From positions 1-45,289 of IMG/VR virus record IMGVR_UViG_2744054912_000003: a stretch of DNA of 45,289 nucleotides. The stretch is one strand, 5' to 3'. The stretch comes from a virus. Its lineage: Duplodnaviria > Heunggongvirae > Uroviricota > Caudoviricetes. A program made the translations under genes and the position numbers. Below are positions 1 to 41,596 of this stretch, piece after piece (the first letter of the stretch is position 1; the number at the start of each line of letters is the position of its first letter). The notes beneath the pieces were generated by a model that saw only the letters and a list, made by a program, of their open reading frames with translations, was not told the origin of the DNA and ran no database searches.

Positions 1-68
1 GTATCCAGTTCTTCGGGCTTACCAATATGGGCCAGAATTGCTGACCAGTTATCGTGAGAGTAATTCAT
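1..68 (-). CDS. insL: IS186 transposase, N-terminal 23 codons only (partial)
   Basis: ATG at 66-68 on the minus strand; translation MNYSHDNWSAILAHIGKPEELDT runs off the window start. Confidence 0.85.
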   Translation of the reverse strand, partial: MNYSHDNWSAILAHIGKPEELD

Positions 69-145: not shown

Positions 146-301
146 TTACCTTTCAGATTCGTAGGCTGTGAAGACAGTGACCTCCGTCTGGCCGGTTCGG
201 ATTCGTACCTCGCAGAGGTCTTTCCTCGTTACCAGTGCCGTCACAATGACGGTTAAACAGATTACGATCAGAGCGATTAATATCGCTTTTTGCTGCTTCA
301 T
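146..301 (-). CDS. hok: Hok-family type I toxin (51 aa, single transmembrane helix)
   Basis: Manual translation of the minus strand gives MKQQKAILIALIVICLTVIVTALVTRKDLCEVRIRTGQTEVTVFTAYESER, close to E. coli HokD/HokC as remembered. This frame is not in the supplied ORF track (under 60 aa). Confidence 0.85.
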   Translation of the reverse strand: MKQQKAILIALIVICLTVIVTALVTRKDLCEVRIRTGQTEVTVFTAYESER

Positions 302-359
302 AGCCTGCTTCTCCTTGACCTTTTGGTCGGTAAGAGGCTAATCTACGTATGCTAAGCAT
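153..359 (-). CDS. mok: Mok-like overlapping leader frame (translationally coupled to hok)
   Basis: 68-aa ORF covering almost all of hok in another frame and extending 58 nt upstream, as in the plasmid R1 hok/mok arrangement. Confidence 0.55.
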   Translation of the reverse strand: MLSIRRLASYRPKGQGEAGYEAAKSDINRSDRNLFNRHCDGTGNEERPLRGTNPNRPDGGHCLHSLRI

Positions 360-410
360 AGATATTGCCTCAGATTAATGTTAAGCGTCTTGCAGGACGC
401 GTAATGTTAT
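345..410 (+). ncRNA. sok: Putative Sok-like antisense RNA (position by analogy only; boundaries not determined)
   Basis: In hok/sok loci the antisense RNA lies opposite the mok start and leader; no promoter or terminator was mapped here. Confidence 0.25.
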
Positions 411-635
411 CTGGGGCTTTCTTCTATCTGCTTTTCGGGTAATGCCTGAAGCAGATAGCCTCAAGCACCCGCAACGATTGTATCAATGTCTGGCTTTTTT
501 TCTATAGAAATCACCGGGAAGGGTGAATATCCACATCAGAAGAAATGTTGCAGCAAACATGATCCCTAATGGCCAGACCGCGCCAAAGAAAATCCATACT
601 GAAAACGCCAGGTGACTCCAGATTAGAGCAATCTA

Positions 636-1481
636 TCACCCTCTGAATCCCGCCGGTATACCCCATTGTTCGTTATCTTTATTTTTGGCTAAAACCGCAT
701 TAAGAGCTTCGTTTACCGTCATGCAATGCGGTAGGTTATCGAAGTTTGATATCCCGCCAATATCAGGCGAACGCTTGTTCTTCAGGTAAGCATATTTCCG
801 CGCAGCCGCCTCTACTTTCTGCTTGAACTCATGTTTTTGAGTGCGTTTTTTGGATAACCGCAGATTGTCAGCCTTTGCTTTTGCCTCAGCGATCCATGAA
901 GTCAATTTTTTGAGTCTGGTCGTTCCGGCACCGCCGGAAACTGATCTTTTTGTTTTTTTAACTTGTGACTTCTTATTCTTTATTGCCACGTCATCCTGAC
1001 AGGGGGAGGGGGTATCATTTTGATATGGGGGTGTGGTTAAAAAATCAAATAAAGCCAATGTCTTAGCGAGAACAGCTTTAACCTTGGTTGCGGCTGAAGA
1101 GATCTTTAATTTGCTTTCAGTCAGCGCGTTTTTAGCTTGTTGTGCGAAGGCCAAAAAGGATGGTGTAAACCGGTACAGGTTAGCGCGGCGTTCACGGTGA
1201 TCGCCGATAACAATCTCTACAGACAGGATTCCTTTGTTTACAGCTTCACGGAATGCACGAACGACGGTTGATTGGCTATAACCAGTTTCTGCCGCGATCA
1301 GGCGGTGAGGCTTGTGAATGAAGTATTCACTGGTTGTTGCCGCGAGATTTGCACATTGCGACAGGATATGCCCGGCGCTACGGGATAGACCGGAGTGTGT
1401 TACAAAGCAGGCCAATTCATAGCCAGAAAAAGTAAAATCGCTCATCGTTATACAGCTCAGGAAAGTGACTTTAGCCAGCAT
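636..1481 (-). CDS. repL: RepL-like lytic replication initiator (start may be the internal Met at 1445)
   Basis: 281-aa ORF immediately downstream of and co-directional with the kilA-like gene, as in the P1 kilA-repL operon; basic lysine/arginine-rich C-terminal half. Confidence 0.6.
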   Translation of the reverse strand: MLAKVTFLSCITMSDFTFSGYELACFVTHSGLSRSAGHILSQCANLAATTSEYFIHKPHRLIAAETGYSQSTVVRAFREAVNKGILSVEIVIGDHRERRANLYRFTPSFLAFAQQAKNALTESKLKISSAATKVKAVLAKTLALFDFLTTPPYQNDTPSPCQDDVAIKNKKSQVKKTKRSVSGGAGTTRLKKLTSWIAEAKAKADNLRLSKKRTQKHEFKQKVEAAARKYAYLKNKRSPDIGGISNFDNLPHCMTVNEALNAVLAKNKDNEQWGIPAGFRG

Positions 1482-2474: not shown

Positions 2475-3518
2475 TTAACCTATTGCTACTGGTTTTAACA
2501 AACCAGCATCAAGTAGCTTGCGAGTTAACCACTGCTGGCCTTTACCCGTTAATTGGGGCGTCAGCCGTATCTGGTAGCCATTTTCATCATCCAGCACCAC
2601 TTCTTTCACCGTGAAATACCCGGCGTTAATGTACTGCTGGCGCGGTACGTTTTTGCGCGCACCAAAAGCCATGAGAATGCCGTTCTGGCGCAACCATGAG
2701 AAAAGGGCGTTTTGCTTAAGTCCAACGACCTTTGCAAAGTTCCCGATCAGGATTCCATTAGCCGCTGATACCCGGTCGGCAAAATCGACTTTAGGGGCTG
2801 CGGCCACCAGCTGTTGTTCCAACTGCATTTTCTGTTCTGCCAACTCGGCAGCCAGGCGTAGAGCGTCTGGTAATGTTTGGGGGATCGATGGGGCAGGGGA
2901 GTTTGCCTGCTGCAATTCTTCCAGTTTGTCGATCAGCGAACGGCGGACTGCTTTTGACTCGCGCGCGGCGACTCGCAGGGCTTGTTTGTAGGTCATGGTT
3001 ATGACAACCATAGGCGTACCGCCACCTGGCGGCACGGTTGCACTTTTTGTGTAACCGTCCTCACCTTCTAATTCGTCGAGTATTTTTTTGATGAATTTGT
3101 TGTTCCGAACCTCTGGTTCCCCACATAACTTACGCGCTTCATTGACCATCTTTAACAGCGTCTGGCTGTCGATTGTGTCTCCAGTGTTGGAGATAACATT
3201 CACAGCTGGTGATGGCGTAGCTGAAGCAACAGATGCTGGTTTTTTAACATTCAAATTATTACTGGTCATTCTATGTGCCTCCTTTCTCATTTCTGCTGCC
3301 ACCGTTGCGTAACGTAGACGTCCTTGTTCAATCAAATAATCCCTGATCTCGGCTATCAGTAGCCTGTTGATCACAGCCTTATCTGTTCGGGTATAAAAAC
3401 GTCTGGTTATCATGAAATAGTTGGCAATTGCGCCGGGGATCTCCCGTGTCGGCATACAGGCAGTATGCAGGGCGATCGCTTCGGCTATGTCATTACGGGT
3501 GACGAGAGGTTTTTTCAT
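2475..3518 (-). CDS. ant1: Antirepressor Ant1 (Ant2 expected from an in-frame internal start)
   Basis: 347 aa; C-terminal antirepressor domain paralogous to KilA; lies downstream of a 73-aa ORF and an operator, as in the P1 immI region. Confidence 0.65.
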   Translation of the reverse strand: MKKPLVTRNDIAEAIALHTACMPTREIPGAIANYFMITRRFYTRTDKAVINRLLIAEIRDYLIEQGRLRYATVAAEMRKEAHRMTSNNLNVKKPASVASATPSPAVNVISNTGDTIDSQTLLKMVNEARKLCGEPEVRNNKFIKKILDELEGEDGYTKSATVPPGGGTPMVVITMTYKQALRVAARESKAVRRSLIDKLEELQQANSPAPSIPQTLPDALRLAAELAEQKMQLEQQLVAAAPKVDFADRVSAANGILIGNFAKVVGLKQNALFSWLRQNGILMAFGARKNVPRQQYINAGYFTVKEVVLDDENGYQIRLTPQLTGKGQQWLTRKLLDAGLLKPVAIG

Positions 3519-3736: not shown

Positions 3737-3789
3737 AGTTACGGCCTCGTAAGTTGATAAACAACCTGCGACCCGCTGCTAAACAGGTG

Positions 3790-3880
3790 GCAGGACGTGA
3801 CGGGGTTAGCAGACTGGCACTTACGAAACCAGCAGGCCGAAGCCTCCCCATCACGCCCCACCATAATTCGGGCGTAACGT
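3790..3880 (-). ncRNA. c4: c4-like antisense repressor RNA (approximate location)
   Basis: On the minus strand, UCUGCUAA and CGUAAGU (plus coordinates about 3802-3826) are complementary to UUAGCAG and ACUUACG located 40-80 nt further downstream, next to the icd ribosome-binding site. This is the two-site pairing expected for c4. Confidence 0.35.
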
Positions 3881-4048
3881 GGTTTACGGACACAAAAATA
3901 CCGCAATATCGGAAATCTGCGGTTGTCCGCGTAAGTATTCAGGCTGCTAAACCCGGTCGCAGAATTTGCTACGACGGCGAAACTATAAGCCTGAACGATT
4001 AAAAGGTCAATATGATGCAAAAAGATAGCATTCGCGACTTAAAAATAC

Positions 4049-18564: not shown

Positions 18565-19181
18565 TGGCATTCAGAATGAGTGAACAATCACGTACAGTAA
18601 AAATTTATAACCTGCTGGCCGGAACTAATGAGTTTATTGGTGAAGATGACGCATATATTCCACCTCATACAGGGCTGCCAGCTAATTCTACAGATATCGC
18701 CCCACCGGAAATTCCTACTGGCTTTGTGGCAGTTTTCAACAGTGAAAATGAATCGTGGAATATTGTTGAAGACCATCGTGGTAAAACGGTCTATGAGGTG
18801 GCATCGGGGGACGCGTTGTTTATTTCTGAACCCGGACCGCTACCAGAGAATGTCACCTGGTTGTCGCCAGCAGGGGAGTATCAGAAGTGGGACGGCGTAT
18901 CCTGGGTGAAGGATGAGGAAGCAGAAAAACTGTTTCGGATACGGGAAGCGGAAGAGAAAAAGGCAAGGTTGATCCAGGAGGCAACAGATAACATCGCAAT
19001 TCTGCAGGACGCAGTTAATCTTGAAATAGCAACAAACGAGGAAAATTCACAACTGGACTCCTGGAGAAAATACAGAGTATTAGTGAGTCGAATTGATACC
19101 AGTACAGCTCCGGATATCGTATGGCCAGAGCTGATGAATCAGGGTTATGTGCGGGAGGACGAGCAGATAACTTCAGACTGA
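18564..19181 (+). CDS. Tail fibre assembly protein (Tfa; P1 gene U position)
   Basis: ATG overlaps the tail fibre stop (TAATG); N-terminus [58 protein letters not shown] is the conserved Tfa N-domain seen in Mu, lambdoid and e14 phages. Confidence 0.85.
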
Positions 19182-19708
19182 AATTTAGTGATGAATGTTG
19201 AATCATCAGGAATATCATGCAATACCAATGCATGAGCACCTATTGTGACATTGTTTCCTATACGCACTTTGCCACCAAGAATGGTGGCATTACAACCAAT
19301 GGTCACATTATCTCCTATAACAATATCCATGTCATTAAATTCCCCGCGAAGTCCAATAGTTACTCCGGGCTTAATTGAACAATTTTCACCGATTGTGACT
19401 TTGTGAGCGATAACAACGCCATTGAGATAAGATATGTCAAACCCTTTCCCTATATTTACCGTTAAGGGAACGGTTACATTGTATTTGTCAAGAATGAAGC
19501 GTTCTATTTTCCCTGCAACCTTTCGCCTGTATCCGCCTTTATCAAAAAGATATTTTGATATGCGCCACCAAAATAAATAACGAACTCTTCTATGTTTTAT
19601 TGCGCGAACAATTGCTTTTCGCCAAGAGAAAGGACGCTCGCTACCAATTACTTCATAGTGAATACAGTCTTTAAGTTCATTAATAGTCATATTTTTATTG
19701 TTCAGCAT
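19145..19708 (-). CDS. Hexapeptide-repeat (left-handed beta-helix) acyl/acetyltransferase
   Basis: Repeated [LIV]-G-x-x-x-x hexads ([16 protein letters not shown]...[34 protein letters not shown]); low GC compared with flanking genes; 3' end overlaps the convergent tfa by 37 bp. Confidence 0.8.
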
Positions 19709-19769
19709 AATATAATAATGTGACCAATTATTATAATAACTTTAATGGATTATTTCTACTGATTATCCA

Positions 19770-20700
19770 GTGTGTCTGGCGGTTTTCGGTATTATCTGCC
19801 GGAACCATGCCTCATCCAGCGGGTATTTGCTGCCTGGGTTGTCCGGTTTTTCGGTCACTCCCTCAGGCCTCCGATTCTGGTCACGGCGGGTTTGTTATTT
19901 TCCAGTGCGTCGGATGACCACTGCCGCAACTTCTGCACCATTTTTTGGGAGCGGGATTTCACTCCTACGCAACCTGCGCTTTTTGTGCAGCCTGTTTTGC
20001 GTGCTATCCCGGATTTTTGAGTTTCATTCTGCCTCCATGATCCTATCAGGGACGACACCAATCCACTTAAGCACGATGCCAAGACCATCAAGGAGCTGCG
20101 TCAGAGGCCCAGCACAATGTTCTGCTTGATCGGCATAGGGGGGAGCACAAGGGCTGCGCCCCTGCCACACCACCCGGCATGCGGGTCCGTACCGGGCTTC
20201 CCCGGCTTCTGACGCAATGCCCTGTCAAGAGTCATATCTTCTGGCTTTCCTTCTCGTTCGGCCCTTCGTCGGAGTCCTGACTACTACGGCCTCTGCTGAC
20301 TTCTCGCTCCGTCTTACGACGTTGCCCTTTCAGGCATGAGGCGAGAACTCCCCAGGTAAGAACGCGATCCTTCCCCGCACAACCGTCGGATCTGCGCGAC
20401 TTCGACTTGACCACGAAAGCTTCGCAGTGATGTGCCTGCTCGCCTTGCTCCATCGCGCCTCATATCCGATTCTCGTTCATCGGCTCACGGGTTCATTCCG
20501 TGCTTCCTCCCCACGCCCGGTCGCCCTCACGCAGTTGCACTTCATTTCGCTCGCTGTGGTCAGCTCGCGGGAGGGCTTTCACCTCCAAGATCGCGCCCAT
20601 GCTGGGCGCACACATTCTCCACGCTCTAAAGGACGTGGAGGATGTCAAGCAACATGACCGGTTGAGAAGTTACTTTGCATACCATTACCTCCTGACAACG
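19770..20700. other. GC-rich (visibly well above flanking DNA) ~0.9 kb region with no convincing ORF
   Basis: Only short overlapping ORFs in all frames and both strands; several perfect hairpins (GCGCCCA-TGC-TGGGCGC, CTCCACG-N10-CGTGGAG). Confidence 0.5.
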
Positions 20701-20713
20701 TAGGAGGGAACTT

Positions 20714-21043
20714 GTGCTTGACACACAGGAATTAGCTCCAGTTGCTATTGCGCTCCTGCTTTCAGTAATTGGTGGGATAGGCACGTTCCTGATGGATGTC
20801 CGAGATGGTCGCCAGTCTGGCAATTTGTTGGGATTGGTTACGGAGATCTTTGTTGCAGTGACAGCTGGCGCGGTGGCGTACCTATTGGGGCAACACGAGG
20901 GCTGGGAGTTATCAATTACGTACTTAATGGTAACGATAGCCAGCAATAACGGTCATGAGGTGATTTCAGGGATGAAACGAGTGAATATCGATAGCATTCT
21001 GAATGTTCTTACAAGTTTGGTGAAAAAGGGAGGTGGGAAATGA
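20714..21043 (+). CDS. lydA: Holin-like membrane protein (LydA-like), GTG start with AGGAGG ribosome-binding site
   Basis: 109 aa with hydrophobic helices; first gene of the operon that contains darA. Confidence 0.55.
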   Translation: MLDTQELAPVAIALLLSVIGGIGTFLMDVRDGRQSGNLLGLVTEIFVAVTAGAVAYLLGQHEGWELSITYLMVTIASNNGHEVISGMKRVNIDSILNVLTSLVKKGGGK

Positions 21044-21483
21044 TTGGCTGGGGTGTATGCGTTCTTGCGTTAGCCTTAGCCGATCGCTATTTGCTAAAAC
21101 GCAAGGACATCACGCATTTAGAACTTGGTGATGTGGAAATTAAACAGGGCTTCATCCGGGTGCCGTTCAAATACCGGTCTAAATTCCCGTTTTTGCGCGG
21201 CGCAACGGTCAGATATTGGATCCGCGATGTTCAGAAGCCAACGACAGTGATTGAAGGCGAACAACGTTGTCTGACGTCGGCTGAACAGGGCGAAAACAGT
21301 GAATGGTTGTACATACCCACTGAATATATGGGTAAAGGAGAACGGCTGTGGCATTTCAACGTCATGGTTACGCATGGTGACTCGTTCATTAACCCGTTGT
21401 ATCGGATTTTCCCTGTTACTCAGCAAATCCGCAGAAGTTACGTAATAAATCTCGCACAGGATGTGTCAGATGACGAAAAATAA
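21040..21483 (+). CDS. lydB: LydB-like protein (antiholin position)
   Basis: 147 aa, start overlaps the lydA-like stop. Confidence 0.45.
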   Translation: MIGWGVCVLALALADRYLLKRKDITHLELGDVEIKQGFIRVPFKYRSKFPFLRGATVRYWIRDVQKPTTVIEGEQRCLTSAEQGENSEWLYIPTEYMGKGERLWHFNVMVTHGDSFINPLYRIFPVTQQIRRSYVINLAQDVSDDEK

Positions 21484-28377: not shown

Positions 28378-29490
28378 ATGAAAAAAATCACAGTGGCACT
28401 TTCTGCGGTTGCAGCATCAGTCCTGATGGCAATGTCTGCACAAGCGGCAGAAATCTATAACAAAGACGGTAACAAACTGGATCTGTACGGCAAAGTTAAT
28501 GCAGAGCATTACTTCTCTTCTTCAGCTAGTGATGACGGGGATAAAACTTATGCTCGTATGGGTTTCAAAGGTGAAACTCAGATTAATGACCAGTTAACCG
28601 GTTTTGGTCAGTGGGAGTACGAATTTAAAGGTAACCGTACTGAAACTGAAGGTTCTGATAAAGACAAAACTCGTCTTGCGTTTGCAGGGCTTCGCTTTGG
28701 CGATTATGGTTCGCTCGACTATGGTCGCAACTACGGTGTAGCGTATGATGTTGGCGCTTGGACTGACGTGCTGCCGGAGTTTGGTGGAGATACCTGGACT
28801 CAGACTGATGTATTTATGACCCAGCGTGCTACTGGCGTCGCGACCTATCGTAACAATGATTTCTTCGGCTTGGTTGATGGTCTGAACTTTGCTTTGCAGT
28901 ATCAGGGTAAAAATGATAGTGCTGCAAAAGTGAACAACTGGAAAGGCCGCGACGTAGTTGAATCTAATGGTGATGGCTTCGGTCTGTCAGCTACTTATGA
29001 TTATGAAGGATTTGGCATTGGCGCAACTTATGCAAAATCTGACCGTACTGATGGACAGGTATCCTATGCTAATGCAAGCTCTCTGAATGCTTCTGGTAAA
29101 ACAGCTGAAGTATGGGCTACTGGTCTGAAATATGACGCAAACAACATTTACCTGGCTGCAACTTATTCTGAAACTCAGAATATGACAGTCTTCGGTGATG
29201 ACTTTATCGCAAACAAAGCGAAAAACTTTGAAGCTGTTGCTCAATACCAGTTTGATTTCGGCCTGCGTCCGTCCATCGCTTACCTGCACTCTCGCGGTGA
29301 AAATATTGGTGCGTTCGGTAACCAGGATCTAGTTGAATACATCGACGTAGGCGCGACTTATTACTTCAACAAAAATATGTCCGCTTTCGTTGACTACAAG
29401 ATCAACCTGATTGATGAAAGTGAATTTACCAAAGCATCTGAGGTTGCAACCGACAACATCGTTGCTGTTGGTATGACCTACCAATTCTAA
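28378..29490 (+). CDS. OmpC/NmpC(OmpD)-family general porin
   Basis: 370 aa; signal peptide ending [19 protein letters not shown]; C-terminal ...VAVGMTYQF with terminal Phe; closely resembles E. coli NmpC as remembered. Confidence 0.9.
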
Positions 29491-29723: not shown

Positions 29724-30212
29724 TCAAAATGGAATATCGTCTTCAAAGTCCATTGGAGGTTCGTTATTGGCGTTGCTCTGAGGTTTACCGCCGCCACTGT
29801 ATTGCTGGTGGTTTTGAGGTTGGTTTGATTGCCCCCAGCCATTTGAGGACTGTGAATCGTCGCGGCGAGTGCCGATCATTTGCATGGTGCCGCCCTGGCT
29901 GACGATAATTTCCGTCGTGTAACGTTCTACACCGGCGTCATCAGTCCACTTACGGGTTTTAAGTTTCCCTTCGATGTAGACCTGAGAACCTTTTCGTAAA
30001 TACTCACTCGCAATTTCAGCAAGTTTTCCGAACAAAACGACTTTATGCCATTCTGTTTGCTCTTTCTGTTGGCCCGTTTGCTTATCGCGCCATGATTCAT
30101 TCGTTGCGATGCTGAGTCTTCCGACTGCGCCGCCATTTGGTATATACCTGATCTCCGGGTCTTGCCCCAGGGTACCAATCAGGATGACTTTGTTTACACC
30201 GCGTTGTGCCAC
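29724..30212 (-). CDS. ssb: Single-stranded DNA-binding protein
   Basis: [30 protein letters not shown]...[31 protein letters not shown]...[11 protein letters not shown]: OB-fold core and acidic DDIPF tail diagnostic of bacterial SSB; GTG start. Confidence 0.9.
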
Positions 30213-30248: not shown

Positions 30249-30381
30249 AATGTATATCTTTGAAACGTGGCTAACAAGTGATTTGCATTATCCTGTGCCT
30301 TCTAAAGGGATCGAGTCAGTCGGTATTGGCTGTGAATGAGTGTTTGTCCTGGAGCGTAAAAAATTCGCTTATGAGGTCTTT

Positions 30382-30939
30382 ATGAAGGGAAAAACAGCCG
30401 CAGGAGGCGGTGCAATTTGCGCTATCGCGGTGATGATTACCATCGTGATGGGTAATGGCAATGTGCGAACCAACCAGGCGGGGCTTGAGCTGATTGGTAA
30501 CGCTGAAGGTTGCCGACGTGATCCATACATGTGCCCGGCGGGGGTATGGACTGACGGGATCGGTAATACACACGGGGTAACGCCGGGTGTGCGAAAAACC
30601 GACCAGCAAATCGCCGCTGATTGGGAAAAGAATATCCTGATCGCTGAACGCTGTATTAATCAGCACTTCCGGGGCAAAGACATGCCCGATAATGCCTTCA
30701 GTGCAATGACAAGCGCGGCATTCAATATGGGATGCAATAGCTTACGGACCTACTACAGCAAAGCGCGAGGCATGCGAGTAGAAACGTCCATCCACAAGTG
30801 GGCGCAGAAAGGGGAATGGGTGAATATGTGTAACCATCTCCCTGATTTCGTGAACAGTAACGGCGTGCCCCTGCGAGGTTTAAAGATTCGCCGTGAAAAA
30901 GAACGCCAGCTTTGCCTGACGGGGCTTGTCAATGAATAA
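30382..30939 (+). CDS. lyz: SAR (signal-anchor-release) endolysin Lyz, T4-lysozyme/GH24 fold
   Basis: 185 aa from the ATG at 30382; N-terminal SAR helix AAGGGAICAIAVMITIVMG; Cys13, Cys44 and Cys51 plus catalytic E42 in EGC arranged as in P1 Lyz. Confidence 0.9.
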   Translation: MKGKTAAGGGAICAIAVMITIVMGNGNVRTNQAGLELIGNAEGCRRDPYMCPAGVWTDGIGNTHGVTPGVRKTDQQIAADWEKNILIAERCINQHFRGKDMPDNAFSAMTSAAFNMGCNSLRTYYSKARGMRVETSIHKWAQKGEWVNMCNHLPDFVNSNGVPLRGLKIRREKERQLCLTGLVNE

Positions 30940-31186
30940 ACTCCGGCAGCTCCGCCGACTTTCGACAATGAAGTTATCGCTGGCGGCGATAGTTTTTGAC
31001 TCGATTTTCATGGCGGTATATGTGCTCAATGAGACGTGGCCACTGGAACCGCTATTGTATGCCGGGCTTCGGCTGTGCCTGACATTTTTGAGCATGGCTG
31101 CGAGATTGATGCAGCAGAAAGAAACCGCTTCAGATTGTCCACGCCGCGCGGTGCGCAAATATATGGCACGAAGGCGAAGGCGATAA
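30932..31186 (+). CDS. Small two-transmembrane protein with poly-Arg C-terminus (possible pinholin-like or lysis accessory protein)
   Basis: Overlaps the lyz 3' end; two hydrophobic helices (LSLAAIVFDSIFMAVYVL, LLYAGLRLCLTFLSMAARL); C-terminus ARRRRR; weak ribosome-binding site. Confidence 0.3.
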   Translation: MNKLRQLRRLSTMKLSLAAIVFDSIFMAVYVLNETWPLEPLLYAGLRLCLTFLSMAARLMQQKETASDCPRRAVRKYMARRRRR

Positions 31187-31189
31187 TAG

Positions 31190-31215
31190 TTAACGAGAAC
31201 CCCGGCAGCTGCCGG
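31190..31215 (+). terminator. Rho-independent terminator (palindrome CCCCGGCAGCTGCCGGGG plus TTATTTTT)
   Basis: Perfect 9-bp stem followed by a T-run; sits between the lyz unit and the convergent protease gene. Confidence 0.65.
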
Positions 31216-31230
31216 GGTTATTTTTGGTGG

Positions 31231-33961
<2,731 letters not shown>

Positions 33962-41514: not shown

Positions 41515-41596
41515 TAATCATTTAAAGCCCATATGATATGGGCTTAAACAACAGGATCGATATACAGTGTTAGTTAAATATATAGGCGAGAGTTAT

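Follow-up and report, generated by a model that had tools for sequence, protein, structure and literature searches.

Does the short open reading frame that crosses the 3' end of the endolysin gene lyz in this phage DNA encode a lysis protein, and if so, of which kind? The first-pass annotation, made from the letters of the stretch, described this frame as unannotated, likened it to the pinholins that partner SAR (signal-arrest-release) endolysins and left two options for it, an unrecognised lysis regulator or a chance ORF. After examination of the window (the whole stretch of 45,289 nucleotides that was analysed), it was concluded that the segment belongs to a P1-like phage-plasmid, of which it forms the late lysis operon lyz-lydD, and that the frame, lydD, encodes a pinholin acting with Lyz. 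The probability of this reading was estimated at about 0.93, and nothing in the window contradicts it. Two bodies of evidence carry it: on the one hand the identity of the proteins, the anatomy of the operon, the membrane features, purifying selection, family relations and gene context, all obtained here, and on the other hand the literature on the identical protein, which covers its cooperation with Lyz, its failure with lambda R, its lethality and a cell morphology of the SAR-pinholin type.

The finding itself is already known: the gene is named, has been annotated since 2004 and was the subject of a functional paper in 2022. The present work makes two small additions, a link between LydD and the DUF7940 family and the lack of coding conservation in the neighbouring lydE frame. 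The features considered are collected in Table 1. The window corresponds to a P1-like E. coli phage-plasmid, in reversed orientation with respect to the P1 map.

Table 1. Position of the lysis genes and neighbouring features in the window.
Feature	Position	Strand	Remarks
hexapeptide acetyltransferase-like ORF	19145-19708	-	in place of lydC/cin
group II intron fragment	20261-20530	-	Rfam; in place of lydC/cin
lydA, canonical holin of the unlinked dar operon	20714..21043	+	Pfam Phage_holin_3_3
lydB, antagonist (antiholin) of LydA	21040..21483	+	Pfam LydB, 8e-103
ssb	29724-30212	-	
late promoter LPlyz (-22 box, -10)	30276..30294	+	sequence identical to LPlyz annotated in AF234172
lyz, SAR endolysin (185 aa)	30382..30939	+	100% identical to P1 Lyz; Phage_lysozyme; PDB match
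lydD, pinholin (84 aa)	30932..31186	+	100% identical to P1 LydD AAQ13988; PHROG 21930
lydE, annotated 'putative antiholin' (71 codons, GTG start)	31036..31251	+	AF234172 annotation; overlaps the 3' part of lydD in another frame
intrinsic terminator of the lyz-lydD operon	31198..31226	+	hairpin and T-run
pro	31231-32280	-	convergent; stop at 31231

The lyz ORF runs from an ATG to a TAA at 30937-30939, and its product, which starts with MKGKTAAGGGAICAIAVMITIVMGNG, is identical to P1 Lyz at 185 of 185 positions. Residues 40-174 match the Pfam Phage_lysozyme family (2e-22), a T4-type lysozyme domain with its catalytic Glu (Glu42 in the translation), and the PDB entry 1xjt is matched over residues 1-185 (E=1.8e-128), as is 1xju. 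The SAR helix covers about residues 5-25 and is weakly hydrophobic and rich in Gly and Ala; the N-terminal windows reach a Kyte-Doolittle mean of about 2.0, yet their insertion free energy is positive on the Hessa scale. Both the SAR helix and the Cys13/Cys44/Cys51 arrangement reported by the first-pass annotation were confirmed by the translation and by the identity with P1 Lyz, and the same regulatory cysteines are kept in relatives of 82-83% identity. Judged from its domain, its SAR helix and its regulatory cysteines, the lyz product is a SAR endolysin of the P1 Lyz type. Activation of P1 Lyz through its disulfide is established background, to which the 1xjt and 1xju structures belong.

The lydD frame comprises 84 codons when read from the ATG at 30932, or 86 if the TTG at 30926 proposed in the program-made ORF list is the start, and its full product is MNKLRQLRRLSTMKLSLAAIVFDSIFMAVYVLNETWPLEPLLYAGLRLCLTFLSMAARLMQQKETASDCPRRAVRKYMARRRRR. 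Its 5' end overlaps the lyz stop codon by 8 nt (ATGAATAA), and a weak GGGG lies seven bases upstream of the ATG. Upstream of lyz, the late promoter LPlyz (AAGTGATTTGCATTATCCT) does not differ from that of P1; its predicted promoter role is the one given in the P1 annotation. Eleven bases past the lydD stop, a hairpin (31198-31219) with a 9-bp stem containing 7 G-C pairs is followed by ATTTTT; the structure has a folding energy of -19.1 kcal/mol (z = -3.0), a value equalled by none of 200 shuffled sequences. The strong terminator that had been noticed after the frame is present, and the convergent pro gene may use it as well.

As regards identity, LydD is the same as the P1 protein at 84 of 84 residues (AF234172), and the PHROG 21930 profile, labelled 'holin', matches it over residues 1-84 (9.3e-59). 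Four nucleotide differences from the P1 reference were found in lydD, all of them synonymous; when lyz and lydD are taken together, nine differences are present, nine of which are synonymous, and both proteins are unchanged. The 19 phage records returned by a megablast search with positions 30300-31260 are without exception P1-like and show 97.9-99.7% identity; P1, P7, JL22, phi456, RCS47 and SJ46 are among them. At the homologous positions, the P1 reference AF234172 lists LPlyz and the genes lyz ('lysozyme'), lydD ('putative holin'), lydE ('putative antiholin') and pro. The description of the frame as unannotated did not hold, since AF234172 carries a CDS named lydD at exactly the same position; both the P1 (AF234172, NC_005856) and the P7 records give the CDS under this name, and several other phage records call it a 'holin'. 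The segment thus resembles that of P1 and P7 in the protein, its position, the 8-nt overlap with lyz, the LPlyz sequence and the lydE and pro genes downstream.

The membrane features that had been pointed out, namely an ~85-codon frame over the 3' end of lyz with two hydrophobic segments and a C-terminal ARRRRR, were all found. The first putative transmembrane segment (TMD1) spans about residues 14-32 (Kyte-Doolittle mean up to 1.89, in the 19-residue window 15-33) and the second (TMD2, LLYAGLRLCLTFLSMAARL) about residues 38-59 (mean 1.42 at 41-59); TMD2 contains a single Gly. Both are just marginally hydrophobic, because of Asp23 and Arg47. Residues 1-12 carry four positive charges (K/R), the NETWPLEP loop two negative ones, and the C-terminal tail 11 positive and 2 negative ones; from this distribution we infer a two-helix hairpin whose N- and C-terminus both face the cytoplasm (N-in/C-in). 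An AlphaFold2 model placed helices at 3-35 and 40-83, with low confidence (pLDDT 65.8) and from a shallow alignment. By its layout, that of a small protein with two predicted transmembrane helices and a charged C-terminus encoded beside a SAR endolysin, LydD fits the pinholin class.

A reading of a different kind is that the frame occurs by chance in the 3' part of the lyz transcript, with no functional protein made from it. The frame is indeed short, automatic annotation appears to have left many P1-like plasmids without a gene here (PLSDB gene table, which is incomplete), and genome-wide CRISPRi found lyz essential and lydD non-essential (PMC10695390). Conservation of the frame and its dN/dS had been proposed as a check on this point, and both were determined on 90 loci, i.e. 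80 IMG/VR loci with a near-identical LydD, 9 loci with divergent homologues and the P1 reference. The 9 divergent loci represent four homologues of 84 aa and 75-83% identity, from phage-plasmids of Salmonella, Klebsiella and other Enterobacteriaceae. The frame was open in all 90, and insertions or deletions were confined to whole codons, as seen in the poly-Arg tail, which reads RRRRR, RRRR, RRR, RRRSR or RRRKR. In the divergent group the tail reads RRKLV, RRKQV, RRESA or RRKLS; these tails lack the arginine run, therefore it is the basic character that is kept and not the run itself.

Variable sites fell on the three lydD codon positions in the proportion 28/14/61 (codons 4-79; chi-square p = 4e-8). 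The dN/dS ratio (Nei-Gojobori) was 0.012 for comparisons within the P1-type haplotypes, 0.073 when these were set against the divergent sequences and 0.10 within the divergent set, as compared with 1.0-8.8 in the other two frames of the region. All these values are indicative rather than a formal test, as the haplotype pairs over which counts were added up are related and not independent, and estimates for overlapping frames are biased. The lydD frame unambiguously encodes a protein under strong purifying selection. Gene order points in the same direction: ssb-lyz-lydD is kept in relatives with 45-85% LydD identity, with an overlap of 4 or 8 nt, including the divergent group, where a ProQ-like gene and repL sit between lydD and pro. 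Moreover, homologues with 29-45% identity to LydD occur in lysis cassettes of unrelated phages, and genetic phenotypes of lydD have been published.

A chance origin is thus ruled out by the conservation analysis and the published mutants, and of the two options first offered neither an unrecognised regulator nor a chance ORF describes a gene that is recognised, genetically tested and under purifying selection. The CRISPRi result is consistent with LydD being an accessory, redundant hole-former. Where lydD has been omitted from P1-like plasmids, annotators should add it.

For the lydE frame the same analysis gave the opposite picture. In 22 of 82 P1-type loci, the window itself counted, lydE is shortened to 11, 50 or 63 codons, and in all divergent relatives to 32-43 codons. 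Variable sites by lydE codon position were 36/18/7, the reverse of a coding pattern, and dN/dS in this frame was 3-10. Its GTG/ATG 'start' simply falls within the LydD codons for Thr35 and Trp36, which are invariant; at its other end the frame passes through the terminator hairpin, with its stop (31249-31251) beyond the T-run. According to the literature, deletion of lydE has no lysis phenotype and lydE adds nothing to plasmid lysis (PMC9025707), and it is non-essential in CRISPRi (PMC10695390). Since coding conservation is lacking, the frame reads through the terminator and a phenotype is lacking, lydE is probably an annotation artefact and not a functional gene. In P0005, P0006 and P0008, three proteins of the database, a frameshift fuses LydD to the lydE frame. 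The alternative of a real antiholin gene is opposed by the conservation analysis and by the absent phenotype, and lydE, still listed as 'putative antiholin', could be dropped from annotations.

With the coding status of lydD settled, the function of its product is best approached through the experiments on the identical P1 protein, in which LydD was shown to be a pinholin and Lyz its partner (Bednarek et al. 2022, PMC9025707); the likeness to pinholin partners drawn from the sequence agrees with this published conclusion. In that study, a plasmid carrying lyz and lydD lysed E. coli faster than one carrying lyz alone, induction of LydD was lethal to cells, and without LydD the morphology of lysing cells shifted from the SAR-pinholin type to the canonical one. 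Loss of lydD delayed lysis, and a lydA lydD double mutant formed no plaques, whereas a lydA lydC mutant did (PMC9025707). LydD alone did not lyse a liquid E. coli culture in a lydA lydC mutant phage (PMC9025707); its contribution is therefore condition-dependent. In a later publication, lydD is likewise entered as 'pinholin' (PMC10067587).

It could be argued that LydD is instead a canonical class II holin that makes large holes as LydA does. GenBank and PHROG label it simply 'holin', its two-TMD layout with a basic tail is that of class II holins, and it lacks hallmarks of the phage 21 pinholin S21, i.e. a glycine zipper and a lightly charged N-terminus. Against this, the identical protein does not bring about lysis when the endolysin is lambda R, which is cytoplasmic, be it in the phage or with the two genes on separate plasmids, whereas LydA and LydC do support lambda R (PMC9025707). 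In addition, SAR-type lysozymes are the consistent partners of lydD-type genes in relatives (loci L082-L090, L093, L095, L096, L101 and L102). A canonical holin was accordingly judged very improbable. LydA and LydC (PF16083, Phage_holin_3_3) are, like LydD, small two-TMD proteins of the same phage that cooperate with Lyz, but they belong to another family, PF16083 not being matched by LydD, and they differ from it in sustaining a canonical endolysin.

A further alternative is that LydD mainly regulates the timing of lysis, either as an antiholin or modulator of LydA/LydC or as one half of a dual-start holin/antiholin pair initiated at Met1 and Met13. The four positive charges within its 12 N-terminal residues recall the feature that makes S21 68 an inhibitor (PMC9025707), and the contribution of LydD differs with host and growth conditions (PMC9025707). 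Met13 is kept in all P1-like relatives and in those of 75-85% identity, and the database entry P0006 starts there. Against this, loss of lydD delays lysis and does not advance it, and LydD with Lyz alone gives faster lysis (PMC9025707). The region ahead of Met13 (GACTTTCGACAATG) contains no Shine-Dalgarno-like sequence, more distant members of the family have Ile, Val or Leu in place of Met13, and variation in codons 4-12 is third-position-biased (5/2/7, small counts), as if these codons were translated. A dual start at Met1/Met13 thus seems unlikely from the sequence, and the regulator reading as a whole was considered improbable.

The pinholin reading implies the following course of events. 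Transcription would start from LPlyz and end at the hairpin terminator past lydD. Lyz would be exported by the Sec system, with its N-terminal SAR helix, which is weakly hydrophobic, tethering it to the cytoplasmic membrane; the tethered enzyme is kept inactive by a Cys44-Cys51 disulfide. Translation of lydD would begin at the ATG over the lyz stop (ATGAATAA), an arrangement that suggests translational coupling. LydD would insert as a two-helix hairpin with its ends in the predicted cytoplasmic location and build up in the membrane until small holes form and the proton-motive force collapses, in this probable order. Depolarisation would hasten the release of the SAR helix, upon which Cys13 would isomerise the disulfide and active Lyz would degrade the murein. 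The LydD pore is expected to be too small for a cytoplasmic endolysin, and LydD would work beside the unlinked canonical holin LydA, itself antagonised by LydB.

This logic, in which depolarisation triggers release, is shared with the phage 21 system (S21 68 / S21 71 and R21), where a small two-TMD protein with a basic C-terminus is likewise encoded beside a SAR endolysin. The two systems differ in several respects. The gene order is reversed, lydD coming after the endolysin gene, and R21 is activated by a refolding mechanism, whereas Lyz is activated by disulfide isomerisation. S21 68 has one positive charge before TMD1 and a glycine zipper in TMD2, while LydD has four charges, no such zipper and no obvious dual start; the authors of the LydD study noted both the charges and the missing zipper in comparison with S21 68 (PMC9025707). 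Given the four positive charges before TMD1 and the lack of a glycine zipper, LydD could not simply copy the S21 68 pathway, in which TMD1 exits the membrane.

Homology between LydD and S21 was not detected by hhalign (probability 0.2%), the S21 query sequence having been checked as 100% identical to the phage 21 record OL657228. S21 matches PF04971 (Phage_holin_2_1) at 8.6e-36, whereas LydD gave no PF04971 match at E values up to 1. The idea that LydD is a homologue of the phage 21 pinholin was rejected, as neither a profile nor a Pfam match was obtained.

LydD matches no Pfam holin family. With hmmscan, a hit to Pfam DUF7940 (PF25612), a family of small membrane proteins from phages to which no function has been assigned, was obtained at 22.8 bits and E = 1.4e-4, which is below the 27-bit gathering threshold. 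When the LydD group was aligned by hhalign with 20 DUF7940 members, the probability was 99.7% (E = 6.6e-26, 66 columns), and 12 of 13 aligned LydD family members matched DUF7940. An exhaustive HMMER search with the LydD alignment gave 14 representatives, mostly of 54-82 aa, and a wider search 58 proteins, most of them with PF25612. These profile comparisons place LydD as a divergent member of DUF7940.

Like LydD, DUF7940 proteins are basic at the N-terminus and have two TMDs, the second of which ends in an ARL(V/M)xQ motif. In the nearer members, Ala19, Asp23, Glu34, Tyr43, Arg47, Thr51, Ala57 and Arg58 are invariant; the most distant ones retain just the basic N-terminus and the ARLVAQ motif. 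The long Arg-rich tail differs in being restricted to the P1 group, and the Asp23/Arg47 pair is kept in the nearer part of the family only.

Several of these homologues were placed in their gene context. A further P1-like element (L096) carries ssb, a SAR Lyz whose cysteine pattern is similar to that of P1-type Lyz, and a LydD homologue whose DUF7940 score, 49.5 bits, lies above the threshold; this homologue is 98% identical to the database protein P0009, itself 45% identical to LydD. In L093/L097 and L095, a Phage_lysozyme gene whose product has a Gly/Ala-rich N-terminus is followed by a DUF7940 gene and then by an Rz-like gene that contains a lipoprotein frame, an arrangement like that of Rz/Rz1 spanin pairs; these contigs, like L101, L102 and L104, come from unrelated phages. 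In L101 and L102 the DUF7940 gene precedes a SAR-type Phage_lysozyme gene, followed in L102 by a spanin-like lipoprotein frame, and in L104 it lies within a spanin cassette. On two N4-like contigs (L092 and L094) it is found away from any lysozyme gene.

A literature search on DUF7940 returned no paper. The link with LydD gives the family a candidate function, that of a holin or pinholin of SAR-endolysin cassettes. At the level of annotation, DUF7940 is plausibly a holin/pinholin family of which P1 LydD is the one characterised member. A more far-reaching proposal, which we regard as tentative and rather doubtful, is that LydD is the first characterised representative of a second, independent family of pinholins that partner SAR endolysins in many unrelated phages. 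Unlike in S21, both ends of these proteins would stay cytoplasmic because their N-terminus is strongly basic. In the relatives closest to LydD, the conserved, membrane-embedded Asp23/Arg47 pair and the loop residue Glu34 might contribute to gating, instead of TMD1 exit and a glycine zipper.

Finally, the other lysis genes of the window were compared with those of P1. The lydA region, 10 kb from lydD, shows 98% nucleotide identity to P1, and P1 homology ends at 20647. The element differs from P1 in that lydC and cin are absent from the window; since lydC is absent while lydA and lydD are present, it seems to rely on LydA plus LydD alone. The layout with the acetyltransferase-like ORF and the intron fragment in place of lydC/cin occurs in at least 35 E. 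coli plasmids. The element also departs from P1 in having a porin gene that adjoins ssb.

P1 carries both cin and the holin gene lydC, whereas these two genes are absent from the window (region 19145-20700), where an acetyltransferase-like ORF and a group II intron fragment are found in their place and homology to P1 ends at 20647. Since lydC is missing and this arrangement is common to at least 35 E. coli plasmids, the lineage of the window seems to have been left with the canonical holin LydA and the pinholin LydD as its only hole-formers.

LydD has a run of arginines at its C-terminus (31171-31186), which was polymorphic in length by whole-codon steps among the P1-like elements (loci L002-L081), the variants being 3, 4 or 5 Arg, RRRSR and RRRKR. 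In the database proteins P0005, P0006 and P0008, LydD was joined by a frameshift to the frame of lydE. The latter frame, which crosses the terminator hairpin and extends into the 3' end of pro, was shortened in many relatives; its variable sites were distributed over the codon positions as 36/18/7, and no coding conservation was seen across the relatives compared. It was concluded that lydE is probably not a gene.

The DUF7940 genes of two N4-like phage contigs, which belong to the LydD family, were located in the early region, near gp1/gp2 homologues and adjoining Sequestin and Acb2/Tad1-like genes. In these contigs, no lysozyme gene was found beside DUF7940, a presumed lysis protein.

Features of the window and, where indicated, of N4-like phage contigs
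Feature	Position	Strand	Evidence
hok toxin ORF	146-301	-	Pfam HOK_GEF
sok antisense RNA	296-470	-	Rfam RF01794
repL	636-1481		
Antirepressor genes (two), ANT/KilA-domain	1511-2311; 2475-3518		
C4 antisense RNA, a1/b1 target sites	3783-3988	-	Rfam RF01695, RF03163
Hexapeptide (serine) acetyltransferase-like ORF	19145-19708	-	
Group II intron D1-D4 fragment	20261-20530	-	
Gram-negative porin gene, full-length	28378-29490	+	Pfam Porin_1, 2e-148
lydE, 'putative antiholin'	31036-31251	+	P1 annotation
DUF2971 protein	41567-42607	+	
ORF, 222 aa	42705-43373	-	
Tn3-family transposase	43740-45209	-	
DUF7940 gene (contigs L092, L094)	3001-3210		

Beside ssb, P1 has isaA/IS1, whereas the window has a porin gene, annotated as ompD in phage JL22; its sequence identifies it as an outer-membrane porin borne by the phage-plasmid. 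Past darB, the segment 41567-45209 contains three genes or ORFs. The C4 RNA and a1/b1 sites lie upstream of both antirepressor genes, and the region, as judged from its sequence, is the P1 immI. Adjoining repL, hok and sok (146-470, minus strand) are predicted to constitute a post-segregational killing module.
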